Shown here piece after piece: positions 213 to 54,152 of a stretch of DNA of 64,000 bases. The first letter of the stretch is position 1, and every line of letters begins with the position of its first letter. The stretch covers positions 1-64,000 of IMG/VR virus record IMGVR_UViG_3300033073_001332, one strand, 5' to 3'. This stretch comes from a virus. Lineage: Duplodnaviria; Caudoviricetes. The translations under genes and the position numbers were made by a program. The notes beneath the pieces were generated by a model. The model did not search any database. It saw only the letters and a list, made by a program, of their open reading frames with translations, and had not been told where the DNA came from.

Positions 213-650
213 ATGAAAAAAACTATAAGATTAACTGAGTCAGAATTAACAAACCTTGTTAAAAGAATTGTTAATGAAATGGAAGAAGATACCACACCTG
301 ATTATATCAAGGTATATCACATGTACAAAAATGGGGAGGTCTCTAAAAAGGACTTCTATGGTTATATGGGGGTTTTAGAAAAACACGAAAGACAAGACTT
401 GATTGATTATATTGAAAGTCAAAAACATTCTTCAATGTTGGACGAAGAATATGAGTCAGTTTATACAGATTCAAGAGAGGATATATCATATGATATTCAA
501 TCAGTTGATTGCGAGGGTGACTTTGGTGGGAATGTTTATATTGATGAAGATGATACCGTTGTGATTAGATATTGTGAAGGAGACGATGAGGAACTTGAGT
601 ATCTAAAAAGAAAAGGTAAGAAATTACTTTATTCAAAGTACGGAATGTGA
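213..650 (+). CDS. hypothetical acidic protein with ITES-type N-terminal leader
   Basis: Leader MKKTIRLTESELTNLVKRIVNE; TATTTATA upstream; terminator downstream. Confidence 0.8.
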   Translation: MKKTIRLTESELTNLVKRIVNEMEEDTTPDYIKVYHMYKNGEVSKKDFYGYMGVLEKHERQDLIDYIESQKHSSMLDEEYESVYTDSREDISYDIQSVDCEGDFGGNVYIDEDDTVVIRYCEGDDEELEYLKRKGKKLLYSKYGM

Positions 651-672
651 TATATACCATTATATTTAAATT

Positions 673-702
673 AACCCCTTTCTTCAACGTTAGGGGTTTT
701 TT
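673..702 (+). terminator. intrinsic terminator
   Basis: AACCCCT...AGGGGTT hairpin followed by T-run. Confidence 0.7.
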
Positions 703-749
703 GTTTTATACCCTTTGACATATCCCAACGTTTTTATTATATTTTATCT

Positions 750-935
750 ATGGAAATGGAACAGAACCCTATTGAATTTATTAAAGAACAAGTGGAACTT
801 GATTTTGATACAAACTTCAAAGACATTAATTGGGACCGATTTTATGATATATTGGAAGAAGCTTATTCAATGGATGTAAAAAGAATGGAATCTCTTAAGG
901 ATTTTGAAACGTGGAAAGAATGGAAAAACAAATAA
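750..935 (+). CDS. hypothetical protein
   Basis: 61-aa ORF ending DFETWKEWKNK. Confidence 0.65.
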   Translation: MEMEQNPIEFIKEQVELDFDTNFKDINWDRFYDILEEAYSMDVKRMESLKDFETWKEWKNK

Positions 936-937
936 CT

Positions 938-1081
938 ATGAAAAAGAATATACTCCCCATTATTTTATTTATTCTTCTTGTGGTTTTTAATATTATATGT
1001 TTCTACTACAATGGAAGAACCATGCACTTAATGACAAACCTTATTATTGGGGGTTTAATTATTTTGAATTATAAAACTTAA
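938..1081 (+). CDS. small membrane protein (two hydrophobic segments)
   Basis: Translated by hand: MKKNILPIILFILLVVFNIICFYYNGRTMHLMTNLIIGGLIILNYKT; fills the gap between neighbours. Confidence 0.55.
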   Translation: MKKNILPIILFILLVVFNIICFYYNGRTMHLMTNLIIGGLIILNYKT

Positions 1082-1092
1082 ATTATATACCT

Positions 1093-1356
1093 ATGAAAAT
1101 TAAATTGAACGCAGAAGAATCTTATACTACCACCCTTTATCGTGAGTCTATGGAAATTGATACTGATAACTATCCTGAATTGGAGGGTATGAGCGAAGAT
1201 GAAATTAGTGATTACATCGATAATAACATTTGGGACATGAAACCCGTAAACTCTGACCTATATGATTCTCTTGGTGAGGAACTAATGGATAAGGATGTTG
1301 AAAATGACCATATCGGTGGTGAGGAAACAACCTTTTATGTTGAACAAATAAATTAA
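1093..1356 (+). CDS. hypothetical acidic protein
   Basis: 87-aa ORF in operon-like run. Confidence 0.7.
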   Translation: MKIKLNAEESYTTTLYRESMEIDTDNYPELEGMSEDEISDYIDNNIWDMKPVNSDLYDSLGEELMDKDVENDHIGGEETTFYVEQIN

Positions 1357-1358
1357 TC

Positions 1359-1877
1359 GTGGATTATATTCCTAACCATTATTATGATTCTTATGGCGAA
1401 TATAAGTTTCATAAACAAGAATCTGAGTTAAGATATCTTCTTGGAACAAAATATATGAAGATATTGGGGGAGTTTATTGAAATAATGTACCCTGGTTTGA
1501 GATTCGATATTCATATTAAATATCGAAACTCTAATGAGAGAATGGTTGAATGGTATGGACATACCTATATGGAACTCGTTATATTTGATGTAATTAATAC
1601 TCCTGTATATAACCCCATGAATTTTGATGCATCTTTTAGAACCCCTAATTATGATGGTTATATAAATGGTGAATCATTTTTTTTAGATATTGAATCATAT
1701 ATCCCCGAAATTAATAAACATCTTCTAATATCTTTTAGACCTTTGATACGACCTCATGAATATGAGACCATTTCATCATTTCATATGAACATACCTGACT
1801 TTGAATGTTGGAAGGAACATTATCGTAGAGAGCGTGTGTATGAGGCTATGAATAGTTCTAGGTTTGAGATGTTTTGA
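1359..1877 (+). CDS. hypothetical protein, paralog of 4300..4731
   Basis: GTG start; shares YPxLxF, YNPM, NGxxF and SYxP motifs with the 4300 ORF. Confidence 0.7.
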   Translation: MDYIPNHYYDSYGEYKFHKQESELRYLLGTKYMKILGEFIEIMYPGLRFDIHIKYRNSNERMVEWYGHTYMELVIFDVINTPVYNPMNFDASFRTPNYDGYINGESFFLDIESYIPEINKHLLISFRPLIRPHEYETISSFHMNIPDFECWKEHYRRERVYEAMNSSRFEMF

Positions 1878-1919
1878 TTTTTTTATTTTATGATATATTT
1901 ATAGTTAAACATTGAAACT

Positions 1920-2177
1920 ATGAAAACAAGAATAACTGAAAGAGATTTATCCCGTATTGCTTCACGTATTGTTAATGAAATGGAAGAAGAGGGAATGAAT
2001 GATGAGACCATGACAGGAGACATAAATAGAGTTATGGATTTCGCTTATGAAATGATTACTGAACTTGCACCTGATGGACCGAGAAATAGAAGACAATATA
2101 TGGCGGCAATTAATCAGTTGGAACGTGATTTTAATTATGCTCTTCGTAACTTGAAAGGTAATCTTGGAATGGAGTAA
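1920..2177 (+). CDS. hypothetical protein with ITES-type leader
   Basis: MKTRITERDLSRIASRIVNE; TATTTATA at 1896-1903. Confidence 0.8.
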   Translation: MKTRITERDLSRIASRIVNEMEEEGMNDETMTGDINRVMDFAYEMITELAPDGPRNRRQYMAAINQLERDFNYALRNLKGNLGME

Positions 2178-2199
2178 TTAATTATAAAAGTATAATTTG

Positions 2200-2229
2200 A
2201 AACCTCATCTTTTATGGATGGGGTTTTTT
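2200..2229 (+). terminator. intrinsic terminator
   Basis: AAACCTCATC...GATGGGGTTT hairpin plus T-run between convergent genes. Confidence 0.65.
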
Positions 2230-2243
2230 GTTTAACAAAAAAC

Positions 2244-2627: not shown

Positions 2628-2773
2628 AACTAATTTTTTAATAAACATAGTATTTTAATTTTAACTGGTCAAGAATTCCAGTTAAATAATATATGGAGTG
2701 AAGGTCAATTTCTGGAAAAATTTTTTTTGACCTGAACCTCCCCCAAACCCCCTCCTTGCTGTATTTATTAAAT

Positions 2774-3358
2774 ATGAAAAGAACTATGAGACTTACTGAA
2801 TCAGAATTAACGAACCTTATTAAAAGAATCGTTAATGAAGACGTGATGGAAAATTCATTATATAACGATATTATGGATTTGATTAGAAACTCCAATTCAA
2901 GTCACGGTGAAACTATTGGTGTGTTAAATTCTATTATTGATGAAATGGAATCATCAAGAAGAGTTAGACGTGGTGCTGAAAAAAGATTTAGACACAATAT
3001 GAATGAGGAGGAAGAAATTGAACCAAAAAGACTTTCGTTTGATGAATGGGCTGACGTGTGGTTAAGTTTAAGAGAACAATATGGTGAAACATTTTTACGT
3101 CCAGATGAATTTGGTCAAAATAGAGACTATCCAATCTTTACTGGAATGAATATGGATTTTTTACCTGAAAATGGTGGTGAGTATTTGCAAGTAATGAATG
3201 AATATAGAAACCCTCGTAATTGGAGAGATGATTATGATAAAGGTATTGAAACTTTATTAAGAATTGAAGATAAACTTAGAGACCGAATTGAAAACTCTGA
3301 TGCTGGTCTTCGTTTTGAATCTGACGATAAATTTAGATTTAGAATTTATAAGAAATAA
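2774..3358 (+). CDS. hypothetical protein with ITES-type leader
   Basis: MKRTMRLTESELTNLIKRIVNE, nearly identical to the 213 leader; TATTTATT at 2762. Confidence 0.8.
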   Translation: MKRTMRLTESELTNLIKRIVNEDVMENSLYNDIMDLIRNSNSSHGETIGVLNSIIDEMESSRRVRRGAEKRFRHNMNEEEEIEPKRLSFDEWADVWLSLREQYGETFLRPDEFGQNRDYPIFTGMNMDFLPENGGEYLQVMNEYRNPRNWRDDYDKGIETLLRIEDKLRDRIENSDAGLRFESDDKFRFRIYKK

Positions 3359-3359
3359 T

Positions 3360-3833
3360 ATGTCACCATTTGAAAAACTTAATGATAAAGCACTTCTTCT
3401 TCTTATGAATCAATTAAGAGAAGAATTTGTGGATAGAGGTATTTACCAAGATGACATAGAAGAATTTTTCACAAATTATGATATGATTCAAAGTAAGACA
3501 TCATACTTTGGTATTGATAATCTGCAAGTTCCAGATTTGACTTATTTGTATGATTTATTTTTGAATGTCGATGATATAGAAGAAGAAATAACAGAATTAC
3601 CCCCAAGACCAAGACTCAAAAAATTTAGAGTGGAGTGGAGTGAAGATGTTACTGAATACAACCGATATTATTATCAAGATACTGTTGAGTCATATTGTGA
3701 TTTATCAACTCATGATATGGAAATGTTAAGAAGTGAAGATTTTTTTGACCCATGGATTGGTAAAATGTACCATAAAGAAATTTTGGATTCAGAATCAACT
3801 GAAGATGAATGTACTGATGTAAGAGAAATATAA
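3360..3833 (+). CDS. hypothetical acidic protein
   Basis: ATG at 3360 directly after the upstream stop. Confidence 0.7.
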   Translation: MSPFEKLNDKALLLLMNQLREEFVDRGIYQDDIEEFFTNYDMIQSKTSYFGIDNLQVPDLTYLYDLFLNVDDIEEEITELPPRPRLKKFRVEWSEDVTEYNRYYYQDTVESYCDLSTHDMEMLRSEDFFDPWIGKMYHKEILDSESTEDECTDVREI

Positions 3834-4249
3834 TGAGAATGATAATTACAGAATCTCAGTTAAGTTTCTTGATTGAAACAGAAAGTGATAAATCCATTTC
3901 CATGATGGAAGAAATCAAATCAAGTATCGATAAGTTATTATCGTATTATGAAAAAACTGATGATGGTAATTTTATTGACTTACAAACAAAAAAACCTGTT
4001 GGGTTAAAACCAATTGCAGGGTATTTCAAATCTAAAATTGAAAGTGTTGTTTTTGGGGTTGAGCAAGAAAACAAACCTGACGAAATAATTTCAAAAGTCA
4101 ATCAAATAAAAAATGAAATCGTTACAGGTAAATTCAAAGATTTTTTTGGTGACTACAACTTAATTAAAATCCCTTTACAAAAGTTTGATTTTTATACTGA
4201 AAAAAAATGTTCAGAAATGAACCCAAAAAGTCCTGGTTGCCAAGCTTAA
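3833..4249 (+). CDS. hypothetical protein with ITES-type leader
   Basis: MRMIITESQLSFLIE; TAATG coupling to the upstream gene. Confidence 0.75.
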   Translation: MRMIITESQLSFLIETESDKSISMMEEIKSSIDKLLSYYEKTDDGNFIDLQTKKPVGLKPIAGYFKSKIESVVFGVEQENKPDEIISKVNQIKNEIVTGKFKDFFGDYNLIKIPLQKFDFYTEKKCSEMNPKSPGCQA

Positions 4250-4299
4250 AAATTTCCATTTATTATTTAGTGTCGGTTTTTTTTAGACTATAATTTATT

Positions 4300-4754: not shown

Positions 4755-6662
4755 ATGAAAAAAAATTTATTAGGTATTAGCATTACTGAAAAAATGAGAA
4801 TTCTTGAGATGCATTACAATGCTGCAGGAAAAAAAATAATTTCAGAACAATCAGAAACACAAGAACCCGACCTTTCTAAATATGATTGGTCAAATAATGG
4901 TTCTGTTGATTTTTGGAAGGCAAGTATTGATAGCATCGTTGATTATATTATAGCCAGAGACTCTTCTAAATCATATTCCAAATTAGAAATATATGGACTT
5001 GTTATGGAGTGGTTTAGGGATGTGAAGAAAAAGAAAATGTCAGAAGAGGATGTAAAAAAATCTCTTTATCTATGGGTAGGAAAAGACCCGTACTACGGAC
5101 TACCAAACGCAAGAGCAAACGTACAACAAAAAACAACAGATGACGAAGGTGTTGAAGGTGCACAATATGATGAACTTTCTACTAAAGAAGAAATTGCAAA
5201 TTCAATAAAGAGAATGGAGGATTATGCAACTAAGTGGGAAACTGAAGTAATCAATCAAATGAATGGTACTTCGGATATTGACGGAAAAGTTAAAGCTCAG
5301 TTGGCAATGATACCTAAATCAGTAAGAGCAGCAATTAAAAGTAAAATTTATTTACCTGATGATGAGTTAACAAAATTAGAAACCTCTGTTAATAATTTTA
5401 TTAAAATGAAAGATAAACCAAATACTAATTTAAAGGTTTATGGTTTTTACACCAAAGGTGGTTATAATGATAACGATTTAAAATTGGTTACAAACGCTAA
5501 AGCGGGTGTTCAAAAAATGTTACAAGGAGGTAAAGATAAAGATAACGTTTACACTGAAAATACCGTTGATGATAATGTTAGATTAAGATTATTAACTGAT
5601 ATACAAAATGAGGTTGATAATTTAATTAAAAATCCTGTTAAAAGAGACCAACTAAGACAAGGTAAATTAATAGAGTTAAGTGTTGCTAAAGTAGTCTCAG
5701 AAGCAGATAGGATAGAATTTTCAGAAGATACCCCAACAATCGAAGGTCAAGAATCAGGTGTTGGTTCTCAAAAATCTATTGAGACTTTAAGGGTTATTAA
5801 TTTTTCTTATCCTGATACTAATACTGCACAAGATGAAAGAGATGCACAAGCGGATAACTTTTTTGCGGATGATGGTACAACAATAAGTAGTGATGCGGAA
5901 GAGGCCATGTACAATATTGCCACAAAAATCAGAACTTTTATTTTAGATTTACAAAAAACATACGGAGTCGATAAAGTTAAAGTATTGAATATAGGTGTTG
6001 CCTCTTATGCGTCGACGAGTACCGTTAATAGTTCTTTTGGTACGGGAGACGCCTTTAAAACTGCAAAAGTCTTTAATAAATCAAATAATGTAAGATTGGC
6101 AAATGCAAGATTAGACGCTATGGATACTGCATTTAAACAAGAGCTACAAGATGTTTTATCTAAAGTTGAAGATGGTGATGGGGAACCATTAAGTAATAAG
6201 GTTAAAACTTTATTAAAACAATCAGAAGCAAATAAAGGTCCTGAATGGAATACAATGGGAGGTTCAAATTATGGTGCCACTTATGGAATTGCAAATTACG
6301 GACCATTATATCAAGCCGCGTACGAAAAAAATAATAAATTAACCCCAAGACAATACTACTCCCAAAGAAAAAATAGCGAAGAAATCAGATTAGATTACGA
6401 ACAAACATATAAAGGTTATAGAAAATCTATGGTTGGTGTTTCGGTTCAACTTTATGTTCCTGAAGAATTGGCAAAACAAACACCTCAAGGAGAATACGTA
6501 ATATCAAGTGTAGGTAACTTTTACGCCAGTATTATTTGGTGGAAAAGAAGTAAGGTAGATATTAATTGGCCTAAACTAGGTAAAATTAGAATCGGTAGGA
6601 ATTATCCAAAAGGATTTATGCCTCCGTTTAATGGTAGAAAAACTTCTTGTCCTATATTCTAA
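4755..6662 (+). CDS. large leader-bearing protein, possible OmpA-C-like domain
   Basis: Leader ITEKMRILEMH..IISE; TATTTATA at 4734; segment YASTS...NVRLANAR recalls OmpA-like peptidoglycan-binding fold (weak). Confidence 0.7.
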   Translation: MKKNLLGISITEKMRILEMHYNAAGKKIISEQSETQEPDLSKYDWSNNGSVDFWKASIDSIVDYIIARDSSKSYSKLEIYGLVMEWFRDVKKKKMSEEDVKKSLYLWVGKDPYYGLPNARANVQQKTTDDEGVEGAQYDELSTKEEIANSIKRMEDYATKWETEVINQMNGTSDIDGKVKAQLAMIPKSVRAAIKSKIYLPDDELTKLETSVNNFIKMKDKPNTNLKVYGFYTKGGYNDNDLKLVTNAKAGVQKMLQGGKDKDNVYTENTVDDNVRLRLLTDIQNEVDNLIKNPVKRDQLRQGKLIELSVAKVVSEADRIEFSEDTPTIEGQESGVGSQKSIETLRVINFSYPDTNTAQDERDAQADNFFADDGTTISSDAEEAMYNIATKIRTFILDLQKTYGVDKVKVLNIGVASYASTSTVNSSFGTGDAFKTAKVFNKSNNVRLANARLDAMDTAFKQELQDVLSKVEDGDGEPLSNKVKTLLKQSEANKGPEWNTMGGSNYGATYGIANYGPLYQAAYEKNNKLTPRQYYSQRKNSEEIRLDYEQTYKGYRKSMVGVSVQLYVPEELAKQTPQGEYVISSVGNFYASIIWWKRSKVDINWPKLGKIRIGRNYPKGFMPPFNGRKTSCPIF

Positions 6663-7478: not shown

Positions 7479-7943
7479 ATGCAACTCAACGAGCAAATAA
7501 AACGAATTAAATCACTAATGTTTGAAGAAGTGAAAGATTATAACATTGTGACATCAGGAGATATTAATTCAACTCGTGGTATGAGAGTCTACATTGAAAA
7601 TTCAAATGGAGATTTAATTGGTGAGACAAACATCATTGATTTTGAAAACGGACTAAAGTTAAGTCCAAATCTTACAAGTTTTATGGATAATAAAAGTGAA
7701 CCATTTGGGATGGATAATGCGGTGTACCAATATAGTTTATCTGTTGAAGAACCTTTCAGAGGTCAAGGTTGGGGTGAGAAACTAAAACATGAGTGTCACG
7801 ACATTGTAAGAAACTTGGGATATAAATATGCAACTAATATTGTAAAATGTGACAACCATGCGTCACAAGGTTTAATGAAAAAATTGGGATATCAGAAACA
7901 TCAATCTAATGGGGTTAGAGATGTTCTGTATTTCGAATTATAA
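7479..7943 (+). CDS. GNAT acetyltransferase with LNEQIKRIKSLM leader
   Basis: VEEPFRGQGWG acetyl-CoA motif; NHASQGLMKKLGY. Confidence 0.85.
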   Translation: MQLNEQIKRIKSLMFEEVKDYNIVTSGDINSTRGMRVYIENSNGDLIGETNIIDFENGLKLSPNLTSFMDNKSEPFGMDNAVYQYSLSVEEPFRGQGWGEKLKHECHDIVRNLGYKYATNIVKCDNHASQGLMKKLGYQKHQSNGVRDVLYFEL

Positions 7944-9781: not shown

Positions 9782-10165
9782 ATGGACAAGAATATTAAAA
9801 ACGAGATTAATGAAATGAAATATCTTTTTGGGTATCAAAGAGGTGTTGTTATTTCAGAACAAAAAGAAGTACCAATGGAAGAAGATATCGATACAGACGT
9901 TGTTGGTGTTGTGGATGATGTTGATTATGACGAAGATGGTGATGATGTTAGTTTAGACGATATCGAAATGTCTGGTCGTGAAGTACAAATTCCTGTTAAA
10001 CCCGATGTTGATACACCAACTAAACCATCTAAACCCGGTACACCATATAGACCAAAACCAGGACCAAAGAAAAATCCTAAAGCGGGTCACGATGATGTAA
10101 TGGACGTTGATATGCCAAATTGGTTATCATTTGATGAACTTGGATTAAACTTTGACGAAGAATAA
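9782..10165 (+). CDS. acidic/Pro-Lys-rich protein with leader
   Basis: NIKNEINEMKYLFGY..VISE; TATTTATA at 9763. Confidence 0.75.
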   Translation: MDKNIKNEINEMKYLFGYQRGVVISEQKEVPMEEDIDTDVVGVVDDVDYDEDGDDVSLDDIEMSGREVQIPVKPDVDTPTKPSKPGTPYRPKPGPKKNPKAGHDDVMDVDMPNWLSFDELGLNFDEE

Positions 10166-11452: not shown

Positions 11453-11746
11453 ATGAAAACAAAAATTACAGAATCAGACATCAATAGAATTGTTAATCGT
11501 GTGATTAACGAAGACGCGGAAGGTAAAGAATTAAGATTTGGAGTTGCCTTTAATAAACAAACTGAATTGGTTGATGATGTAATCAACAGAATCAAAGAGT
11601 ATGGTGATGAATATACAAGAGCACTTAATAAATTAAACTTTGATTTCCCAACTGAAAAATATAAAAGGGTTGAAAGACCAAGAAGAGATAATTTTGAATT
11701 ACCAAAAGGAGTTAGAGTTCAAAGTAGTGTGTTTGGTGATGAATAA
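11453..11746 (+). CDS. hypothetical protein with ITES-type leader
   Basis: MKTKITESDINRIVNRVINE. Confidence 0.75.
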   Translation: MKTKITESDINRIVNRVINEDAEGKELRFGVAFNKQTELVDDVINRIKEYGDEYTRALNKLNFDFPTEKYKRVERPRRDNFELPKGVRVQSSVFGDE

Positions 11747-13729: not shown

Positions 13730-14281
13730 ATGAAAATCATAATTACAGAGTCACAATACCGTTTTTTGGTCGAAAATACCCAAGAAATCGACCAAATATT
13801 GGATAAAATGAGTGAAATTGGGTACGAAAACCTTGAAAATGAGGAAAAAATGACCCTAAATGCCTATTCTGAGTGGTTAAATAGTGGAAAAAAGGGTGAA
13901 TTTACCCCCCAAAATACCCCTAAAAACACCAATTTTGATGATAAATCAGGTGAAAAATGGACCAGAACACTACAGGATGGAAGTCAATTTACGTTCCAAT
14001 TTGACTATGAAGAAATAGAAGAAGACGTAGAATTATACTTTGGTGTTGTATCTTGGGGTGGAACTGAATGGGTAGGTTGTATTGTTGCTGAAAAAGATGG
14101 TTCTTTAGCTCTTTTAGACTTTGTTGAAGATACTGGTGATTATGAAACTTATGACAATGCACAAATAACCTCTAAATTCCAACCAAAAGAACATAAATAC
14201 CTTTATAATGAACTTGGTAAATTACAAGATGAGGTTGATTATTATGTTGAAGAGGTAATTATTCCTGAGTTAATGGATTAA
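13730..14281 (+). CDS. hypothetical protein with ITES-type leader
   Basis: MKIIITESQYRFLVE; TATTTATT at 13719. Confidence 0.78.
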   Translation: MKIIITESQYRFLVENTQEIDQILDKMSEIGYENLENEEKMTLNAYSEWLNSGKKGEFTPQNTPKNTNFDDKSGEKWTRTLQDGSQFTFQFDYEEIEEDVELYFGVVSWGGTEWVGCIVAEKDGSLALLDFVEDTGDYETYDNAQITSKFQPKEHKYLYNELGKLQDEVDYYVEEVIIPELMD

Positions 14282-14881
14282 ATCGTTGGATTTCAAATAA
14301 TCAAACATAGATTTAGCTAACTTTTCACCAAATTTTATATCTGATGGGTAATGTGCTTTTGCCATTTGACGTGAATTTGTAATATCTTTACAAATCTTAT
14401 TAAAATCTTTTTTGTATTCGGGATATAATTCACTTAAAACTAAACATAGAAGGTTAGATGTTGTTGAGTGACCTGAAGGGTATGCAAAACCCTCCATTGA
14501 ATCTAACATGGTATCAGTTAAGGATGAGTCTAATCTAAATGGTCTTGGTCTTTTGTAAAAGGATTTCAAATCTAAAACGATGTAATATAAATCATCGTAA
14601 ACTTTTTTTAAGAACTTTTTATCGTATTTGACTTTCTTCTCATCTAAAAACTTCAAAAAGTTTCCCAACATATCATCTTTTTCTTGAATAAACAATTTAT
14701 CTAACTTGATTGACTTTAGATAATCTAATTCTTTTTTGGTTTGGAGGCTATTATCGGAAGGGGGTGGAACGTCCTTGAATTCTGAATAATCAAACCCATA
14801 GAATAGATTATTCTTTGATAACTTTGACTCATTCAAAGACATTAATTTTTTAATTTTCAAAATTTCTTCTAGTAATAACAT
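14270..14881 (-). CDS. PAP2 / class A acid phosphatase family protein with leader
   Basis: KxxxxRPRP, YPSGH and SRxxxxxHYPSD catalytic motifs; leader LLEEILKIKKLMSLNE. Confidence 0.85.
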   Translation of the reverse strand: MLLLEEILKIKKLMSLNESKLSKNNLFYGFDYSEFKDVPPPSDNSLQTKKELDYLKSIKLDKLFIQEKDDMLGNFLKFLDEKKVKYDKKFLKKVYDDLYYIVLDLKSFYKRPRPFRLDSSLTDTMLDSMEGFAYPSGHSTTSNLLCLVLSELYPEYKKDFNKICKDITNSRQMAKAHYPSDIKFGEKLAKSMFDYLKSNDLIH

Positions 14882-18404: not shown

Positions 18405-19085
18405 ATGAAAAAAGGATTAAACCCTAAGCTCGAGCCTGGCGATAGAATTATTCTTGTCCATATGGAGGGAGAAGATGTTGGTGCAGGTACAAAGGGAAAG
18501 GTAATCAAAATAGAAAAAACCCCTTCTTTTGGTAATTCACCTGATTATCAATACCGTGTTGAATGGTTTGACGACGAAGGTAAAGTAATAAGTACACTCG
18601 CATTATTACCAGATGTTGATGGGTGGATTATTGACGAAGAAGAAAAGGAAAATATCCAAGAAATAAATTTCAGAAGTCTTGATGATTTGATTTCGAAGGG
18701 TGATTTTTTAGCGTGTTTTTCAAAAAGAGATTTAGATGAAATTTATAAGTTTTTAGAACTTGAAAGACAGATTGGTTCGCACAACATGGCAATGGAAGGT
18801 GGTAAGTTTTTATTGATGGGTCCTGACTACATACGAGATTTTTTCAAATTACAAAGTTACCACAGAACCCCTGACGAAGATAAGCAGATACTTATAGATA
18901 AACTTATAGACCGAGCTCAAGATATGTATGATTTGTTTGTAAGAGCATCCATCAAATATCTTGAAAATAAGGATAGTGAAATTACTATACCTGCAGTTCA
19001 AAGAACTATGCGTAGGTTAGCAACAACCGCTAAACAATTTTGGATGTTTGGTGGACATAAATTTTTAAATAAAGAAATAGAATGA
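18405..19085 (+). CDS. hypothetical protein (SH3-like N-terminus possible)
   Basis: TATTTATA at 18394; PGDRIILVHM..GTKGKV..YRVEW. Confidence 0.7.
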   Translation: MKKGLNPKLEPGDRIILVHMEGEDVGAGTKGKVIKIEKTPSFGNSPDYQYRVEWFDDEGKVISTLALLPDVDGWIIDEEEKENIQEINFRSLDDLISKGDFLACFSKRDLDEIYKFLELERQIGSHNMAMEGGKFLLMGPDYIRDFFKLQSYHRTPDEDKQILIDKLIDRAQDMYDLFVRASIKYLENKDSEITIPAVQRTMRRLATTAKQFWMFGGHKFLNKEIE

Positions 19086-19588
19086 GAGGATTTTCAGTAA
19101 TGTCTGACGAAGAAAGACAATCAATTTTAAAACAACATTCAACACCATATGATGGTTATGCTACAGGAAATGTTCAATCAAACATGACACCATTAACGGT
19201 ATATGATGCAGCAGGAGACAAATTAGGGGTAACCGTAGATAATCAAGGTAATGTAAAAGAGTACACAAATCATAATGTTAATGAGAGTGTAAATGAAATA
19301 ACGGCAAAACCTTTGAATTACGATGAGATTGAACCGGCTTATGAGTTTGAGTCTGATGGACCACAACAATCAATGACACAGATGGGTATGGGTAAAAAAC
19401 CATATGATTTTGTTTCGAAAGGACCATCTGATGTTTATGAAGATGAGTTAGAAGGTGGTGTTTACGATGACATCGACTTTGACGAACTTGTAAACGATGA
19501 CGAAGAATTACAACAACAGAGAGACCAAATAGAGGAGAGTGTAATCAAATCATTGGATATGTTTAAAAGATTTCAAAAATATAATTAA
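19082..19588 (+). CDS. acidic hypothetical protein
   Basis: ATGA overlap; leader-like EERQSILKQH. Confidence 0.75.
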   Translation: MRGFSVMSDEERQSILKQHSTPYDGYATGNVQSNMTPLTVYDAAGDKLGVTVDNQGNVKEYTNHNVNESVNEITAKPLNYDEIEPAYEFESDGPQQSMTQMGMGKKPYDFVSKGPSDVYEDELEGGVYDDIDFDELVNDDEELQQQRDQIEESVIKSLDMFKRFQKYN

Positions 19589-19905
19589 TGGAAGTTGTTG
19601 AAATAATATCACATTATATTGATAAAAATCAAAACATCATCAACATTGAATTTAAATTAATGGGGGATGATGATGATATAGTAAGAGAAGATATTATTGA
19701 ATATAATTTTTTTGAGGAGTTTGGTTACGACAATAAAAAACCATATGAAATGTTTGAGTCATTCATTAATGAAGATGATGACGAAGACGAATGGGAATTA
19801 GATGAGGATGTGGATTATATTGATGACGAAGATGTATTAATATCTTTTTTAAATGAATACTACATTGTTTACCCTAAAAAATTACCAAAAGGACAAATTA
19901 AATGA
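19588..19905 (+). CDS. very acidic hypothetical protein
   Basis: Coupled ORF. Confidence 0.7.
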   Translation: MEVVEIISHYIDKNQNIINIEFKLMGDDDDIVREDIIEYNFFEEFGYDNKKPYEMFESFINEDDDEDEWELDEDVDYIDDEDVLISFLNEYYIVYPKKLPKGQIK

Positions 19906-21371
19906 AAACTATTTTAAGTGAAATAAAAAATTTTAAAAGACTGGTTAAACTTGTAGAATCAGACGACAAGGATGTAAAAGTTGTATTAATAGGTGACCAA
20001 TTAACAAATTACTTAAATAGTAACGATTTTATCAGTACCCCTAATTTGAGAGATGATGAAATGACAATAGATAAACTATTGTTACGTTTATCAAAACAAG
20101 ACAAAATGCCAGAGGTAGACCACGTATTTGTTTCTATTGGTGTAAACGACAAATTCCAAAATAAAAAAACAATACCATTCTTAGTCGATGCATTGGACAA
20201 TATTTTTCCTAACGCCGAAATTGATATCGTCAAAGGAATTGTTGGTTCAGATTATTTTTATGGTGGAGAAGAAGTTGAAGACTTCAAAGAGTTAGAAAAT
20301 GAAATTTTGGATTACTACAATAACTTTAAACAAAAAGGAATTTCTGTTTTAGGTAATTACCCATCTATTGATTATGGGTTAGGTAACTCCGAAAAAAGCA
20401 TCAGTATATTAAAAAATCAAATGTCGGATTCGTTATATCAAAATATAACAAACTACGGCGAAAGAGTTGAACCATTATCGATAGATGAACCTTTTATCTA
20501 CAAAGATAACGTAGACATTAGTGGTGACGATTCCACAGACTTTGATACCATATATGAATTTTTGGATAGGTTTGAGGAAATGGTTAAATCGGGGAATAAC
20601 TACGATTCAAGAGTTAGAAATAGTTTCAAACCGGATATCGAACAAATACAAATCGCTTTAAAATTCTTATTACCAAACTTTGATTTAGAAATAACAGGTA
20701 AGTATGATACCGATACCGAAGAGGCTATATATAAATTCCAAGAACAACAAGGAATTGAATCTACGGGTATTGCTAATCAAGAAACTTTAGAAGAAATATT
20801 ATTTGATTTAAAAGTAAAAAGTTTTGATGATAACGACTTATCAATGTTTTTAAAAGATGAATCAATTTTTAAAGATGATTTAAAAATAGATGATGTATTA
20901 ATTGATAGTGGTATAAGTGCAAAAGTAGGTTCTATACACTCACAAGACGAGTCATTCTATGAAGAAATATTAGATTGTATAGGTGCACCAAATACTGGTG
21001 AAAACAAGTTATTTTTCTATGCTTGGAGACAAGCTGAGGGAGCGAAGGCAAAATTCAATCCATTCAATACTACACAACCTTTTGGTGATGATACAAAATA
21101 TAATTCTGTGGGTGTTAGAAATTACGAAACAGAGGAAGATGGTATAAATGCTACATGTAAAACATTAAAGAATGGTCATTATCCATGTATAGTTGATGGT
21201 CTTAAATCTGATATCGGTGCTAAAAATATCGCAGAAAAATGTCTTTCTAATTTAAAAACGTGGGGTACTGGCGAGTTAGTATTTAAAGTTTTAAATGGGG
21301 GTGGAAGTGTTAACCCACCTGCTATTGAGAGAGGTGAAAAAATAAACATCATCAAAAAAATGATGAGTTAG
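19902..21371 (+). CDS. leader + peptidoglycan-binding domain + putative lysozyme-like hydrolase
   Basis: TGKYDTDTEEAIYKFQ..GIESTGIA (PG_binding_1); AWRQAEG..NPFNTT..VRNY C-terminal domain; SGNH-like N-terminal part. Confidence 0.7.
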   Translation: MKTILSEIKNFKRLVKLVESDDKDVKVVLIGDQLTNYLNSNDFISTPNLRDDEMTIDKLLLRLSKQDKMPEVDHVFVSIGVNDKFQNKKTIPFLVDALDNIFPNAEIDIVKGIVGSDYFYGGEEVEDFKELENEILDYYNNFKQKGISVLGNYPSIDYGLGNSEKSISILKNQMSDSLYQNITNYGERVEPLSIDEPFIYKDNVDISGDDSTDFDTIYEFLDRFEEMVKSGNNYDSRVRNSFKPDIEQIQIALKFLLPNFDLEITGKYDTDTEEAIYKFQEQQGIESTGIANQETLEEILFDLKVKSFDDNDLSMFLKDESIFKDDLKIDDVLIDSGISAKVGSIHSQDESFYEEILDCIGAPNTGENKLFFYAWRQAEGAKAKFNPFNTTQPFGDDTKYNSVGVRNYETEEDGINATCKTLKNGHYPCIVDGLKSDIGAKNIAEKCLSNLKTWGTGELVFKVLNGGGSVNPPAIERGEKINIIKKMMS

Positions 21372-21384
21372 TTATTGTTGTATA

Positions 21385-21729
21385 ATGAAAAACTTGAATG
21401 AAGATATCTACAGAATTAGACAACTTATGACTATTATAGAAAATAGTGAAAGCGATAACTATGAAAAAAATTTAGATGAGGAAATTGAGGTAAATGAAGA
21501 AGGTGAGGAAACTACTGACACAACAACAGATACGACTACAGATACCTCATCAGAAACAGGTTCTTCTATGACGCCATGGGAAAGTGGTGTTGCTAGAGGA
21601 CCAGGAAACCCAATTACAAGTGCGAAACGTGAAGATAAAACCACAAGAGGTAAAGGGAACCCAATAGGTGCAACTAAATGGGCATCAGGAAGAACTATGG
21701 GACCTACCGGTAAAAACTATAAAGTGTGA
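21385..21729 (+). CDS. small protein with LNEDIYRIRQLM leader and RG(P/K)GNPI repeats
   Basis: Leader; WESGVARGPGNPI, TRGKGNPI and WASG repeats. Confidence 0.75.
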   Translation: MKNLNEDIYRIRQLMTIIENSESDNYEKNLDEEIEVNEEGEETTDTTTDTTTDTSSETGSSMTPWESGVARGPGNPITSAKREDKTTRGKGNPIGATKWASGRTMGPTGKNYKV

Positions 21730-23615
21730 TGGAAAAATTAATAACAGAACAGATTTTAAAACAACTTAGACTTATAAAATATGATAGGTCTAAAAGTTTA
21801 TTAGAACAATCTGAAATTCCAAGTGACTATTTAGGTGATACAGGTAGTTTTGAAAAACAAATACAAAAAAAAGAATTACCTAAAACAGGTAAAGAATCAC
21901 TAGAAGATAAAACTATGGGTCGTTACATAGAAAAAGGTGAATTTGAAAAGAGACTATGCGACACACCTTCAATTTTAATGTGGGACACAGATGATGAAAA
22001 ATATTATTACCATAAACCATCTGAATTTTGTAAATCTTTTGGTGGTACTGAATTAATTTACGTTGATACAAATTATTTGTTGTCTCCTGTCAACATGGCA
22101 GAACCGAGATATCGTTGTGCGTGTAAACAAAACGGAGAAATTTTAGTACCTACACCTGATGGTGGAAAAACAATGAAGGTTAATAATTTTATCATAAGTA
22201 ATGAAAGTGTGGGTGGTAAAACAGGAACAGCGATTTACGATTGGTTTCATGATATGCATAATTTCCTTATGGTTGGGTCACTTACTTTAACTTTGTTTGG
22301 TGGACCAGTTGGTGCTGCACTTGCAATAGGTTTGGATATTGCGGATTCTGCTTTATACCTTGAGGAGGGTGACCCGTGGATGGCTGGGTTAATGTTTATG
22401 ATGGCAGTTGTTCCATTTGGTAAACTAATGAAGTTGGTTGGTGGTAAGTCGTGGGCCAAAGGACTTACAAAAGAAATATATGAAAAAATATTAAAAAAAT
22501 TAAAATTAAAAAAAGAATTAACTGAGGCTGAAAAAAATATTGTAGAAGCACTATCTAAGGCTGAGTTGAGAAACAAGGCTTTTTGGAGGTTAATTAAAGG
22601 AAAATTGAATGTGGCTATAAAAAAATATGATATATTTTACTTTGTTAGGGCAATTATTTACTTAGTAGATAAAGGTCTTTTACTTTCATCGTTTCTAATA
22701 AAATTTGGTCTTGTAATTGCTGGTGTTTGGTGGTCGTGGAGTCAACTAGCGGATATTTTAGGTATCACAAAAGGAGATGATGATATCATAAAAAAACAGA
22801 TGAGTGAATCTGAAATGTTAAAATTATCTTTAATAAATTTAGTTCAAACGGCAATAAATAAAAATTTTGTTTATAGTGAAAAATATAAAGATGTAAATCA
22901 ACCAATAGTCGGTTTATTTCAAATATTATTACAAGGATATGGAAACGAACCTCACATCGTTAAAGGAGAATCCTCATCTAATAATATGATAAATTTATAT
23001 AATACTTCAAAAATAAAAGAAATAAAAGCATACAACGTAGCAGGAAAAGAAGTTGCTAAAGTATTGAATAATGATAAAAAAAATAATTTATCACTAAAAT
23101 TACCAAGTAAAGGGGTTTATATATTCATGTCAAATTATTTTGATGGTAGTAAAGGTAAGGGTAAATTTATTTTTGACCCGGCTTCAAAAGGAATTTACTC
23201 TAAATTTGAAATCATTAGTGATTCACTTGAAAAGAATTTCAAGTGGGGTTATTATACACCTAAAACAACCTCAGCTGTTAGTGAATTTCAAAAAGAAAAA
23301 AATCTACCTTCTGATGGTGTGATAGGTAGTGAGACCATGAAAAAACTTTTATTGACTTTAAGAAATAAAAACGCAGATACCTTATTGAAGGAGTTAACAT
23401 TATGGGGTATAGATTTTTCTAACTTATCTGAAACTAAGATTATTGAAAAAGTACCAACAAAGGAGGAAATAATGTCTGCATATGAAAAACAAAAAACCCA
23501 AGTATCAGATTCACTGAATGTTGCGTATGAAATGAAGTATATAAAAATAAAAGAAAAGGCCGATTCGTTGTCTGCTATCGGGGAGGGTTTAAGTATTATT
23601 ATACCTGAAAAATAA
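21729..23615 (+). CDS. leader + hydrophobic segments + peptidoglycan-binding domain protein
   Basis: Hydrophobic FGGPVGAALAIG..MAVVPFG region; WGYYTPKTTSAVSEFQKEKNLPSDGVIG PG_binding_1 motif. Confidence 0.75.
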   Translation: MEKLITEQILKQLRLIKYDRSKSLLEQSEIPSDYLGDTGSFEKQIQKKELPKTGKESLEDKTMGRYIEKGEFEKRLCDTPSILMWDTDDEKYYYHKPSEFCKSFGGTELIYVDTNYLLSPVNMAEPRYRCACKQNGEILVPTPDGGKTMKVNNFIISNESVGGKTGTAIYDWFHDMHNFLMVGSLTLTLFGGPVGAALAIGLDIADSALYLEEGDPWMAGLMFMMAVVPFGKLMKLVGGKSWAKGLTKEIYEKILKKLKLKKELTEAEKNIVEALSKAELRNKAFWRLIKGKLNVAIKKYDIFYFVRAIIYLVDKGLLLSSFLIKFGLVIAGVWWSWSQLADILGITKGDDDIIKKQMSESEMLKLSLINLVQTAINKNFVYSEKYKDVNQPIVGLFQILLQGYGNEPHIVKGESSSNNMINLYNTSKIKEIKAYNVAGKEVAKVLNNDKKNNLSLKLPSKGVYIFMSNYFDGSKGKGKFIFDPASKGIYSKFEIISDSLEKNFKWGYYTPKTTSAVSEFQKEKNLPSDGVIGSETMKKLLLTLRNKNADTLLKELTLWGIDFSNLSETKIIEKVPTKEEIMSAYEKQKTQVSDSLNVAYEMKYIKIKEKADSLSAIGEGLSIIIPEK

Positions 23616-23635
23616 ATTGATATATTTATTATATT

Positions 23636-26689: not shown

Positions 26690-26690
26690 T

Positions 26691-50626: not shown

Positions 50627-50761
50627 ATGGTAACATACGACGTAATAGAAATAGAAACAGGAAACATTATCTTATCAGACACAACACAAGAGGAATGTTT
50701 ACAATGGATAGAAGATTATGGTAATATTATAGATTATACTATACAAGAACATCAATATTAA
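50627..50761 (+). CDS. small acidic hypothetical protein
   Basis: Translated by hand, 44 aa, starting MVTYDVIEIETGNII. Confidence 0.5.
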   Translation: MVTYDVIEIETGNIILSDTTQEECLQWIEDYGNIIDYTIQEHQY

Positions 50762-51300: not shown

Positions 51301-51798
51301 ATGAAAAGAATTGTTAGACTAACAGAAAATGATTTAGCTCGCATCGTTAAGAGAGTTATTTCTGAACAAGCAACTGGAATGGCAGCATTAGGTAAATTTG
51401 GTGACTTTTTAGTGAACGAAAATCATAGAAGTAACCAAACTTCAGCGGGCATCCCTGTTCAAGTATACGCATCTATGGGTTCAACGGCAACTCCAATGAT
51501 GTTGGCGGATGAAAGTGGAAATAAAGTACAAGGTGTTAAAATTGATGTTAACGCGGTTACTTATTCAGTTAACGGTCAAGAAGTTAAAAAAGTGGCATCA
51601 GGGAATATTCCTTTTTATCAAATTTGTGGAGCTCAAGCTAACTTCTTTGCTAAAGATACTATCAAAAGTGTAACTACTGGTGGTGCTGGATATAACTCAA
51701 AACCTAATGGACCTATCCAAACTAAAGCGACTGAAGCTTGTAAAGCTGCTGGGTTCAAAGGACAAATTCAAAAACCAGCAGGTGCTCAACTTGCGTAA
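51301..51798 (+). CDS. hypothetical protein with ITES-type leader
   Basis: MKRIVRLTENDLARIVKRVISE; TATTTATA at 51252. Confidence 0.8.
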   Translation: MKRIVRLTENDLARIVKRVISEQATGMAALGKFGDFLVNENHRSNQTSAGIPVQVYASMGSTATPMMLADESGNKVQGVKIDVNAVTYSVNGQEVKKVASGNIPFYQICGAQANFFAKDTIKSVTTGGAGYNSKPNGPIQTKATEACKAAGFKGQIQKPAGAQLA

Positions 51799-51822
51799 TT
51801 TATATAAAAACTTTATATAATT

Positions 51823-51850
51823 AAAAACCCCTCCGAAGAGGGGTTTTTTG
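51823..51850. terminator. bidirectional intrinsic terminator
   Basis: AAAAACCCCTC-CGAA-GAGGGGTTTTT. Confidence 0.8.
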
Positions 51851-51853
51851 TTT

Positions 51854-52390
51854 TTAGTCGTTAAAAATTTTACTTGGGTCAGGACCTTGAGTAAATAAAC
51901 CGTCAAATGGGTTTGTATCGATTGAGTAAGTAGAACTCATTTTGTTTTTATTCTTCCAAAACACGGTAATCATTGGGTATTTTGGGTTACTATTCAAATT
52001 CAAAATAACGTATTTTTCATTTGTTTTAGAGTATACGTGACTTTTGTCTTCGATTGTTAGGTATGCAAACTCACCATCAGACTCAATACTTTTGATTTTT
52101 GATTTCTTTTGTATGTCGATGACTTCATCACCTTTACCTTTAAGTAAGTAGTCGTGTGTTACAATGTTTGAATCAAAGTCAAAAGTGTAAAGTTGGAAAC
52201 CTTCGTAAATACTATCACTTACTCTATCCTTGAATGAATTTGGTGACATTTCAGTAGAGTTAACTACTTTGAAGCTGTTTACGAATACTTGAAAATTACC
52301 GTTAAGGTTATCTTCTTTAGTATTCATAAAGGTGAAAGCTAAACCGAAGATTGCTGTGAAAGCTAAGAGACCAAAGATTAATTTTTTCAT
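51854..52390 (-). CDS. secreted or membrane-anchored hypothetical protein
   Basis: N-terminal MKKLIFGLLAFTAIFGLAF; TTTG-N19-TATCTTTG promoter at 52429-52459. Confidence 0.75.
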   Translation of the reverse strand: MKKLIFGLLAFTAIFGLAFTFMNTKEDNLNGNFQVFVNSFKVVNSTEMSPNSFKDRVSDSIYEGFQLYTFDFDSNIVTHDYLLKGKGDEVIDIQKKSKIKSIESDGEFAYLTIEDKSHVYSKTNEKYVILNLNSNPKYPMITVFWKNKNKMSSTYSIDTNPFDGLFTQGPDPSKIFND

Positions 52391-52488
52391 GACTTTTATT
52401 TTTTAGAGGTTAATTAATGATTACACTACAAAGATAGGACCTTTTTTTGATTTGCCAAAAGATTTTGAAAATATTTTTATTTTTTTTA

Positions 52489-52510
52489 TCCCCACCGTTA
52501 AGTGGGGATT
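52489..52510 (-). terminator. terminator downstream of tmRNA
   Basis: ATCCCCAC-CGTTAA-GTGGGGAT hairpin just past the tmRNA 3' end. Confidence 0.55.
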
Positions 52511-52515
52511 TTAAT

Positions 52516-52914
52516 TGGTGGAGGTGGAGGGACTCGAACCCTCGTCCAGCCTATCCTGTCAGATAAGGACTACACGTTTAGGTCAAGGTTTTTCATACCT
52601 TCCGAACTATCCGAGTTTTCACACCGCTCAGCGACGGTGATAGTTCTTTCGGGGAACCATACCCGTTTTGTTTTCTTTTAGAGTGAAAACCAACTCATCT
52701 ACGACTTCTGTTGCTAGGTTATATGTCTGACCGACCCCCCGTTTCCGTGCTTTACTTAAGCTACAGTAACTTGCTCAGTTGCAATTAAACCAACCACTGA
52801 AAGGTTATCAAGTACGTTGCCGTATATAATGTGAATCAGTTTTTAAAGAGATTAATTCAGTCCCTACGTGCCCTTATTCCTCAGCCAATACCTGTCAAAT
52901 CCAAAAACACCCCC
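52516..52914 (-). ncRNA. ssrA: tmRNA (transfer-messenger RNA)
   Basis: 5' GGGGGTG..GGATTTGAC pairs with 3' CACCTCC-ACCA (G3:U alanine determinant); T-arm GAGGGTTCGAGTCCCTC; internal tag ORF at 52756-52821. Confidence 0.92.
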
Positions 52915-52936
52915 ATATTTTCAAAGAACTATATTA

Positions 52937-52967
52937 CAAAGATAAGTATTTTCTTTTATCTTTTCAA
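52937..52967 (-). promoter_or_regulatory. Bacteroidota-type promoter for tmRNA
   Basis: TTG-N20-TATCTTTG on the minus strand. Confidence 0.55.
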
Positions 52968-52982
52968 TATATTTATAAATAC

Positions 52983-54152
52983 ATGCGAAAAATATTAGAT
53001 ATTTTTGAACAAGAGGAAGATGATGTAGAATTGACTGACTACGAAAAAATTCTTGCACTTAATAAAAGAAAGATTAGTCCATATGATGTAGAGTTTTATG
53101 ATTCTGAGGGTAAGGATTACAGTGATGTGATTGAGGTTACCCAAGATGGTCTTATTTTTACTTTTGATGGTCTTGATGAATATTTAAGATTTTTCTTTCC
53201 TGAGGAATTTGGTGATGAGGGTACAGATGCATGGTATGAAGCTGGATACTTAGATTCTATGTATCGAGGTAATTGGGATTGGGATTATTGGGATAGAAGT
53301 AATGATGATTGGGATGAAGGGTATGTTATTGACTCTATTAGAGGAGAATCTAGAAATGTATTATATCAAATATTACAAAAAACTTCACCATCTTTATCAA
53401 AAAACATTAAAGTGGACACAGAAGGTAATCTCAGATTTACCGATACATTAAATCAAGAAGTAAGTGATTTTATTGAAATATTAAGTGAGAAAACTAAAGA
53501 TGAGCTTATATCTGCATATGTTTATGCAAATGAAATTGCAAATAGAGAAGCCACTCCAAAATATTTAGAAGACCATTATTGTGACGGATTAAAAGATATT
53601 GGTATTGAAAGATACTCAAACAAATATTGTTTTTGGAAATATGAATTATCTTGGGGACCTGCAATTATGTTATTTGTAAGACATGGCTCTCCTGATGATA
53701 ACTTACTTGATTTAATGTTTGAGGCAATAAGAAAAGATTTTAGAAACCACACATCAGATTACTATGAAATTCAATATGAAGCGTGGGATAATGATGCATT
53801 TAAAGAATACTTTGGTAAAAAATCTTTATCAATACTTCAAAATCTACTTTCTGAACTTGAAGAAGAAGATGAAGATAACCCAAGCCAATTTAAAAAATAC
53901 CTTAAAATATTAGAAATAATAAATAATAAAATCGGGTTCAATACATGGAAAAAACTACCAACACCTAGTGAAAATGGCGGTTACCCATATCAATTATTAA
54001 TTGATGATGTTGATAAAGATACATTACTTATTCGTTACAATGTAAAAAATATTTTAAGTCATGGTGTTAAAGTCGGTAGAGTTCCTTTAGAAACTATATT
54101 TGATATGTTGAACTCCCCCCAACTATTTGACCCCACAGAATTTAGGTCCTAA
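52983..54152 (+). CDS. acidic hypothetical protein
   Basis: 389-aa ORF; TATTTATA at 52970. Confidence 0.75.
   Translation: MRKILDIFEQEEDDVELTDYEKILALNKRKISPYDVEFYDSEGKDYSDVIEVTQDGLIFTFDGLDEYLRFFFPEEFGDEGTDAWYEAGYLDSMYRGNWDWDYWDRSNDDWDEGYVIDSIRGESRNVLYQILQKTSPSLSKNIKVDTEGNLRFTDTLNQEVSDFIEILSEKTKDELISAYVYANEIANREATPKYLEDHYCDGLKDIGIERYSNKYCFWKYELSWGPAIMLFVRHGSPDDNLLDLMFEAIRKDFRNHTSDYYEIQYEAWDNDAFKEYFGKKSLSILQNLLSELEEEDEDNPSQFKKYLKILEIINNKIGFNTWKKLPTPSENGGYPYQLLIDDVDKDTLLIRYNVKNILSHGVKVGRVPLETIFDMLNSPQLFDPTEFRS

Follow-up and report, generated by a model that had tools for sequence, protein, structure and literature searches.

Genes at the left end of a tailed-virus genome (IMG/VR record IMGVR_UViG_3300033073_001332; Duplodnaviria, Caudoviricetes) encode proteins that begin with short glutamate-terminated peptides, here called tags, placed in front of otherwise unrelated sequences (the cargo). 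The stretch analysed, the window, is the first 64 kb of this genome, which we designate G000; window and genome numbering coincide. G000, from an uncultured phage, is a single viral record of 219,553 bp with 32% GC, and two related genomes, G001 and G003, are used for comparison. A first-pass annotation of the window had listed about 20 leader-bearing proteins, and all 20 of its coordinates are genuine starts of open reading frames (ORFs) with the peptides quoted. Twelve of the leaders are robust and five are plausible, while three (9122, 52983 and 16034) gained no support for tag membership. The robust tags are listed below. Each peptide is written up to its predicted cleavage point, and 'motif' stands for the upstream sequence TATTTAT[AT], a putative late promoter exemplified by the site at 190..197 (+).

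213..278, +: tag A1 MKKTIRLTESELTNLVKRIVNE; gene 213-650, 145 aa, cargo of unknown family; E = 8.5e-11; TATTTATA at 190-197
1920..1979, +: tag A1 MKTRITERDLSRIASRIVNE; gene 1920-2177, 85 aa; E = 2.5e-6; motif at 1896-1903
2774..2839, +: tag A1 MKRTMRLTESELTNLIKRIVNE; gene 2774-3358, 194 aa; E = 9.5e-10; TATTTATT a few bases before the ATG
3833..3877, +: tag A2 (short) MRMIITESQLSFLIE; gene 3833-4249, 138 aa; E = 8.7e-5; no motif of its own, same strand after gene 2774
4755..4847, +: tag D MKKNLLGISITEKMRILEMHYNAAGKKIISE; gene 4755-6662, 635 aa, unknown family; external model E = 1.2e-7 over the full model; motif at 4734
7479..7526, +: tag B MQLNEQIKRIKSLMFE; gene 7479-7943, 154 aa, GNAT acetyltransferase; E = 1.7e-3, rank 1; motif at 7468
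9782..9859, +: tag C MDKNIKNEINEMKYLFGYQRGVVISE; gene 9782-10165, 127 aa; external model E = 3.4e-20
11453..11512, +: tag A1 MKTKITESDINRIVNRVINE; gene 11453-11746, 97 aa; E = 9e-10; tag kept in the G001 ortholog
13730..13774, +: tag A2 MKIIITESQYRFLVE; gene 13730-14281, 183 aa, DUF6576 match at residues 15-48; E = 3.7e-6; motif at 13719
14828..14881, -: tag B MLLLEEILKIKKLMSLNE; gene 14270-14881, 203 aa, PAP2 phosphatase without a strong transmembrane segment; E = 5.9e-3, rank 1; the G001 ortholog has MILNEKINRIQKLMLLE
21385..21441, +: tag B MKNLNEDIYRIRQLMTIIE; gene 21385-21729, 114 aa, acidic; E = 2.5e-4, rank 1
51301..51366, +: tag A1 MKRIVRLTENDLARIVKRVISE; gene 51301-51798, 165 aa; E = 3.8e-5

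Membership was judged by leave-one-out tests with hidden Markov models (HMMs), chosen against circularity; for 9782 and 4755 we used HMMs built only from other phage contigs. Nine of the ten type A members in the genome ranked first, seven of them in the window (213, 1920, 2774, 3833, 11453, 13730 and 51301), with E values from 9e-11 to 9e-5 as against 0.003 or more for the best non-member. In type B, rank 1 was reached by 7479, 14881(-) and 21385 (E from 2e-4 to 6e-3). In the same tests 26691 (rank 7 for type A) and 19902 (rank 18 for type B) failed. Outside the window, genome 180900, 211794 and 217361 are robust members too. Of 19 proteome occurrences of the core [LIV]TE[SNRTAQD][EDQ], 10 lie inside the first 13 residues, and the ending [LIVM]xEQ[SPKAQ] falls within the first 45 residues in 7 of 12 cases (1.7 expected). 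Weaker candidates are as follows (h, hydrophobic residue; x, any residue).

19902..28121, +: weak tag-like block with genes 19902 (489 aa, PG_binding), 21729 (628 aa, PG_binding and hydrophobic segments), 23636 (1017 aa) and 26691 (476 aa)
19082..19141, +: marginal tag-D-like N-terminus MRGFSVMSDEERQSILKQHS of gene 19082-19588; external HMM E = 0.097; no terminal h-x-E

The four genes of the block, within which gene 21385 also sits, each have an h-x-E about 19-27 residues from Met without a significant HMM score; 21729 and 23636 look tag-like and are plausible only. The G001 ortholog of 21729 begins MKKIIEEEILRQLQLINFDKGKTISEQ. A protein atlas search with the 1017-aa protein 23636 gave no usable match.

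Cargo parts are mutually unrelated by blastp, as had been claimed, one shared PG_binding domain excepted; a short terminal peptide is common to otherwise unrelated proteins. Pfam upholds the cargo assignments GNAT (7479), PAP2 (14881), PG_binding (19902 and 21729) and NlpC/P60 (16034), the last on a protein whose leader is unsupported. The picture of a cargo made up of many enzymes does not fit type A, most of whose cargos are small proteins (85-200 aa) of no recognisable family.

At least four sequence-unrelated tag families, found by external scans, coexist in this one phage, in place of the two leader types first described. Tag A has the consensus MKKxIRLTESELxxhhKRhhxE, with a short form MKIIITESQ..hhE, and tag B the consensus LNExIxRIKxLM..hxE. 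Tag C (..NEEhxxMKYLFGYxRGxxISE) lies 12-19 residues from Met in 33 of 33 viral-contig matches, on 10 unrelated cargo clusters. Tag D (MxKFhISExEKxRILEMHQNATSxxYLxE, also ISExEKxRILEMH....hhSE) is N-terminal in all 25 matches, with 13 cargo clusters among 24. Type B has the look of an abbreviated C, and an intermediate between them, MNLNEHIKRMKTLFNAEHGIVKPLVSEQ, is present in G001. The leader of 9782, originally placed in type B, is a real tag of family C; those of 4755 and 19082, taken for relatives of A, both go with D, the former significantly and the latter marginally.

The anatomy of the tags centres on glutamate. An alignment of 26 A tags (at least eight records) has three columns without variation, M1, E9 and E22; both Glu stand in an (L/I/V)-x-E context, and conservation ends abruptly at E22. 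The residue past the final Glu is Q, S, N or D, and an acidic linker follows it. Although tags C and D show no similarity to A in sequence, both of them open and close with h-x-E as well. In T4, Asp at P1 blocks processing by gp21 without blocking targeting, and propeptides usually have several sites (PMC9026906; PMC5694885); we therefore compared Asp and Glu usage. Counts on the best 150 database matches were set aside, that list being biased by score. The sample used instead consisted of 31 non-redundant tags, taken at a loose threshold from a small local set, and in-silico E9D mutants were all still detected. Position 9 was Glu in 31 of 31 tags and position 22 in 22 of 22, whereas the acidic position 11 was Glu in 16 and Asp in 14; the tags close in (L/I)-x-Glu, and neither of the two Glu was ever Asp. 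A post-hoc regular expression for the core hhK(K/R)hhxE is circular for G000 and was usable only as a replicate in G001.

Tag A is an amphipathic helix whose hydrophobic moment is high; most of the cargos are soluble. We rejected Sec-type, lipoprotein and type IX secretion system (T9SS) signals, since the tags are charged and amphipathic without a hydrophobic core. True Sec signals and a CHU_C T9SS domain are present on other genes of this phage, e.g. 16134-18368.

The head module lies mostly just past the right end of the window (genome coordinates).

61846-63621: TerL
63660-65483: T4 gp20-type portal (Pfam Portal_T4, E = 2.6e-68; phrog_138 is also cited for the T4-type prohead)
65505-66236 (locus L001:1505-2236): 243-aa core-like protein between portal and protease
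67288-67998: Peptidase_S77 (gp21-type) prohead protease (Pfam PF03420, E = 9e-25)
68369-69904: scaffold-like protein, 511 aa, very acidic, between protease and major capsid protein, named from position and composition only
69938-71776: gp23-type major capsid protein (MCP; Pfam Gp23, E = 1.7e-73)

The genome thus encodes a gp20 portal and a gp23 shell, together with a scaffold core assigned by position and composition, as in a T4-type prohead. The catalytic residues of the gp21-type protease (triad His92/Ser155/Asp181) are intact and align with ELNHP, GVSSRG and Asp of wild-type T4 gp21. In the MCP, the sequence HLINE/AAST (residues 56-61, slash at the putative cut; HLLRE/ATAS in G003) stands ten residues before a conserved GSFET..VRR block, and HLINE/A resembles the tag end R(I/V)(V/I)NE. 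The 243-aa protein is conserved, occupies the position of T4 gp67/gp68, and has many [LI]xE sites; within it a tag-like stretch, LESLTESERKEIISIVSLSNEE, is similar to the start of 26691.

The upstream motif connects tag genes with structural genes. TATTTAT[AT] stands 11-49 nt upstream of the genes for the portal, the 243-aa core-like protein, the protease, the scaffold, the sheath, the head-tail adaptor and many tail proteins. In G000 it precedes 9 of the 14 robust tag genes and 41 of 214 others (p = 5e-4), and the five motif-less robust tag genes follow motif-bearing genes on the same strand. The replicate in G001 gave 12 of 17 tag genes against 50 of 225 others (p = 7e-5), and G003 also has the motif before head, tail and tag genes. 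Its letters are those of T4's TATAAATA in reverse complement, although it is read in the sense direction. Further sites in the window are at 1896, 4734, 7468, 9103, 9763, 13719, 14931(-), 16046(-), 16118, 23623, 28641, 44794, 51252, 52970, 58432, 59240 and 63642. The phage has its own sigma-70-type factor (genome 189211-190026).

G001 (229 kb) shares 150 of 228 proteins at ∼61% identity, has the S77 protease and gp23, and carries 12 A tags and 3 B tags, with one tag gene between protease and scaffold. In G003, whose MCP is 54% identical, eight tag genes directly flank the protease gene on both sides, between portal and scaffold/MCP and on the same strand; T4 core genes 67 and 68 occupy the equivalent position. 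As to expression together with head proteins, what is observed is the motif shared in two genomes and the tag genes in the G003 head operon; two runs labelled RNA-Seq consist of contigs and have the look of DNA. In ortholog pairs conservation is far stronger in the tag than in the cargo: gene 51301 and its G001 ortholog have 33% identity overall but ∼20 of 22 residues in the tag, and 217361 and its G001 counterpart have only the tag in common. About half of the tag genes have no G001 ortholog.

In contigs of related strains, 1695 is joined to 4736 and 1903 to 4788, so that the cassette holding tag genes 1920, 2774 and 3833 is missing; each of the two junctions is at or adjoining a TATTTATA motif. 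A solid joint of 936 to 1363 deletes ORF 1093-1356, and the leader of gene 213 has within it a loose end from which a different leader follows on. These junctions suggest, though on short flanks, that cassettes are shuffled at promoters and leaders.

Exchange of tags is clearest on one cargo outside the window. The tagged DHH-like protein at genome 211794-213293 (locus L005:11794-13293) has a weak Pfam DHH match and belongs to a very abundant family of more than 3,900 relatives, some with SET methyltransferase (722-aa forms) or GNAT (644-665 aa) domains fused at the C-terminus. Among 120 listed relatives there are 45 distinct leaders, 5-26 residues long and of at least four types, each ending in h-x-E right before a conserved SGIRDI, with Glu at P1 in all 45. 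From these alignments, the family appears to be the clearest sign of interchangeable tags with a fixed h-x-E junction, and tag swapping at an invariant junction on one cargo family supports the earlier suggestion that new cargo is recruited by leader fusion. If packaged, the SET- and GNAT-fused forms would be candidate injected host-modifying enzymes.

Searched against 1.84 billion representatives in public data, the A-tag profile matches 9,184 clusters (50% identity; E ≤ 0.001). The match begins at residues 1-3 in 139 of the best 150. Most matches are proteins of 80-250 aa with wholly different continuations; a search restricted to A1-tagged proteins above 254 aa gave only 2 matches. A second tag copy, internal or at the extreme C-terminus and often without Met, is present in 65 of the best 150, and protein 194535 of G000 is tagged at both ends, by a short tag at the N-terminus and a tag-C-like segment at the C-terminus. 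Since internal and C-terminal copies occur, the tag is better described as a portable module than as the strictly N-terminal leader first reported. PHROGs gave no family for 10 tag proteins, and we found no published description of these tags in the literature.

The nearest isolated phages by MCP (∼42% identity at most) are Flavobacterium phage immuto, Microcystis phage Mel-JY01 and Rhodothermus phage RM378; none of the three gave a match to the A1 profile. Genes 193 and 194 of immuto (L065:2712-4012), adjacent and by terL, share a different leader, ..NFxLxxFL(T/V)ENKLTxNxxxLKE. This cultured T4-like phage of Bacteroidota may thus have a tag of its own and could serve as an experimental model. 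In the uncultured 484-kb phage LR756508 (L069-L072), whose MCP is the closest database match to that of G000, several ORFs start with short cousins of tag A, M(K/R)LTE(S/R)KLxxhV...E.

The product of 16134-18368 (+) combines a Sec signal, a PKD-like domain and a CHU_C T9SS sorting domain. Because of the Sec signal and the T9SS domain we take the host to be a member of Bacteroidota; the domains imply that the host T9SS would secrete this phage protein. Several other genes of the window are of interest. A giant ORF, 28662-38252 (+), encodes 3,196 aa with a globular N-terminus and a composition of 33% Gly, 32% Ser, 18% Thr and 8% Asn, nearly all in collagen-like G-(S/T)-(S/N) triplets; it has 43-46% GC against 30% GC for the genome, TATTTATT stands upstream, and a 2,707-aa antisense ORF is a by-product of the repeat. 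An AAA+ cluster (54149-57829) consists of an M42/M20-type peptidase at 54149-55225 (-), a ClpB-like double-AAA+ ATPase at 55247-57286 (-) and, adjoining them, a small protein with two UVR motifs at 57461-57829 (+). The window also encodes an FKBP-type peptidyl-prolyl isomerase at 8630-9055 (-), a UvrC-like GIY-YIG/RNase H nuclease at 12398-13672 (-), a denV-like pyrimidine-dimer DNA glycosylase at 50739-51230 (-) and, amid virion-protein genes, a GT9 heptosyltransferase-like protein at 45860-46792 (+).

We consider it probable (roughly 70%), judging from sequence, that the tags are capsid-targeting propeptides resembling the capsid-targeting sequence (CTS) of T4. The first-pass annotation had read them as addresses for loading cargo into the head. 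In favour of that reading are the head module with its gp21-type protease, the h-x-E ends with Glu and never Asp, the MCP site that looks like a tag end, the G003 tag genes flanking the protease gene, and the upstream motif common to tag, head and tail genes; packaging, cleavage, timing and delivery we infer. Under this scheme, tagged proteins would be made late in infection alongside head proteins, and the amphipathic helix of the tag would dock the cargo on the portal-borne scaffolding core before the gp23 shell closes. The S77 protease would then cut after the Glu of (L/I/V)-x-E at the start and the end of the tag. The tag peptide would leave, and the freed cargo would be retained in the head with the DNA, probably to be ejected into the Bacteroidota host. 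Tags are exchanged between cargos, and internal or C-terminal copies would give polyprotein-like precursors or doubly tagged proteins such as 194535.

Several observations weigh against capsid targeting. A straight alignment puts the T4 gp23 site opposite GSFE/T, which is not an L/I-x-E motif, so that the MCP site stays a guess. The motif h-x-E is weak (843 [LI]xE in the proteome), and the conserved LI(K/N)E before SGIR in the DHH-like family could be the first residues of the folded cargo. The G000 tags are 15-31 aa long, against 10 in T4. Internal and C-terminal copies mean that an N-terminal position is not essential. On the promoter side, TATTTATA is a candidate late promoter, 'late' by association only; the motif is real but noisy, with 50 sense and 20 antisense copies in upstream windows. 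No isolated relative appears to be tagged: tblastn with a tag protein and with the tag alone found no match in isolated phages. Complex prediction between a tag A alignment and a scaffold-homolog alignment scored 0.00, which is evidence neither way.

The tags might instead be uncleaved docking or adaptor helices for another hub (capsid exterior, head fibres, neck or tail, or a replication/assembly compartment), comparable to the N-terminal anchor domains of tailspikes and fibres. An amphipathic helix followed by an acidic linker, copies that are also internal and C-terminal, and a motif held in common with structural genes would all fit such helices, and packaging and cleavage are only inferred. 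We nevertheless find this explanation unlikely, because three unrelated tags have at either end a Glu that never gives way to Asp, which suits a Glu-specific protease better, tag genes gather round the prohead protease gene and not round tail or fibre genes, and on one cargo the tag types swap while the h-x-E junction alone stays fixed. Those boundaries, along with the likeness to the MCP site and the G003 clustering round the S77 gene, would also go unexplained if the tags were degrons or chaperone handles that time protein activity through a quality or turnover machine of the phage: the ClpB-like AAA+ protein (55247-57286), the M42/M20 peptidase (54149-55225) or the FKBP (8630-9055). Terminal amphipathic peptides are typical AAA+ recognition tags, and the genes of the ATPase, the peptidase and the UVR-domain protein adjoin one another in the window; yet the ATPase is ClpB-like with no ClpP-type partner seen, and neither the AAA+ and peptidase genes nor the FKBP gene have a positional tie to the tags. 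This makes a degron role very improbable.

Two further explanations would dispense with a targeting function, and we give either of them hardly any credence. If a mobile promoter or translation-initiation cassette like the PeSL elements of T4 were conserved at the nucleic-acid level, the shared peptide would be a by-product; the conserved motif upstream of most tag genes and the variant contigs joined at or by motifs and inside a leader (on short flanks) would fit, and PeSL-type shuffling has been reported for T4-like phages (PMC4122927). However, leader codons of paralogs differ synonymously (Leu TTA, CTT, CTA and TTG; Arg AGA and CGT), so that a purely DNA-level repeat is largely refuted. 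Amino-acid conservation extends across thousands of clusters, internal and C-terminal copies lack a promoter context, and scans with DNA patterns found the family only with fully degenerate codons. A single fast-evolving paralog family, with an N-terminal functional domain as its only conserved part, would account for small type A cargos that mostly lack a Pfam or PHROG family and turn over quickly. We reject it because of the unrelated cargos: tags stand on the unrelated folds GNAT, PAP2 and DHH-like, one orthologous cargo bears several tag types, and cargos with the same tag fall in many unrelated clusters.

Capsid targeting might extend further. Conceivably, though we doubt it, the tag families form an addressing code, in which different tags would lead to a different place, amount or ejection order in the head and internal copies would give polyproteins cut by the head protease into several cargos. 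With such a code, the injected proteome of thousands of uncultured T4-like phages would become readable from sequence, including envelope-active enzymes (PAP2, PG-binding) and host-modifying enzymes (DHH-like fused to SET or GNAT). If the tags simply work as proposed, proteins that are packaged and probably injected could be predicted from sequence in a very abundant uncultured freshwater phage group, and portable packaging signals would be at hand for engineering phages of Bacteroidota. Few tagged proteins match any known family. The proteins injected by T4 include IPI (anti-restriction) and Alt (a modifier of host RNA polymerase), so that the tagged set, if the reading is true, would be a rich pool of candidate counter-defence and host-takeover factors.

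The principle is known from T4, and here it is a variant with tag sequences of its own. The T4 10-mer presumably shares with the G000 tags only the Met-Lys start and the h-x-E end; membership in a T4-type CTS system would thus be functional and analogical, not by tag homology. In T4, the CTS of IPI, IPII, IPIII and Alt is removed by gp21 (Mullaney and Black 1996, via PMC9026906, PMC3012670 and PMC5694885), which cuts after L/I-x-E, and 10 residues are enough for packaging (PMC9026906; PMC5694885). Alt has propeptides at both ends (PMC9026906), and reviews have already suggested the CTS as an evolutionary device for recruiting new cargo (including PMC9026906). G000 is alike in its short terminal peptide with an (L/I)-x-Glu end on unrelated, mostly small proteins, in the type of head module (gp20 portal, S77 protease, scaffold, gp23 MCP) and, as with Alt, in one protein tagged at both ends (194535). 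It differs in having at least four unrelated tag families on ∼15-25 genes, against 4-5 tagged genes in T4, and in a Bacteroidota host; tags of its type also occur in internal tandem copies. Among its cargos are the envelope-active domains PAP2 and PG_binding as well as a DHH-like protein that is SET- or GNAT-fused in relatives, and the system is known from sequence alone.

In phiKZ-like phages (phiKZ gp175, 201phi2-1, SPN3US gp245), ∼19 head proteins of 201phi2-1 are processed after Glu by a gp21-related protease, and the propeptides, with multiple sites, are inferred to target proteins into the prohead (PMC5694885; PMC9026906). G000 resembles them in the gp21-related protease, the predicted processing after Glu and the multi-site propeptides. 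Their propeptides, however, end in S/A-x-E, are often longer than 100 aa and are protein-specific, whereas G000 tags are short, shared and portable with a hydrophobic P3 (L, I, V or M throughout), and the MCP and portal of G000 are plainly T4-type; we therefore do not place the tags in the phiKZ-like class. Also comparable are the polymorphic internal-protein loci of T-even phages, which, as reported through PMC3012670 (its ref. 23), have only the CTS in common. Like G000, they have hypervariable cargo behind a conserved leader and fast gene turnover among close relatives; G000 differs from them in scale (one tag on 9,184 clusters in public metagenomes), lineage and tag sequence. As the principle is textbook T4 biology, what this system would offer is scale, diversity and predictive power rather than a new mechanism.

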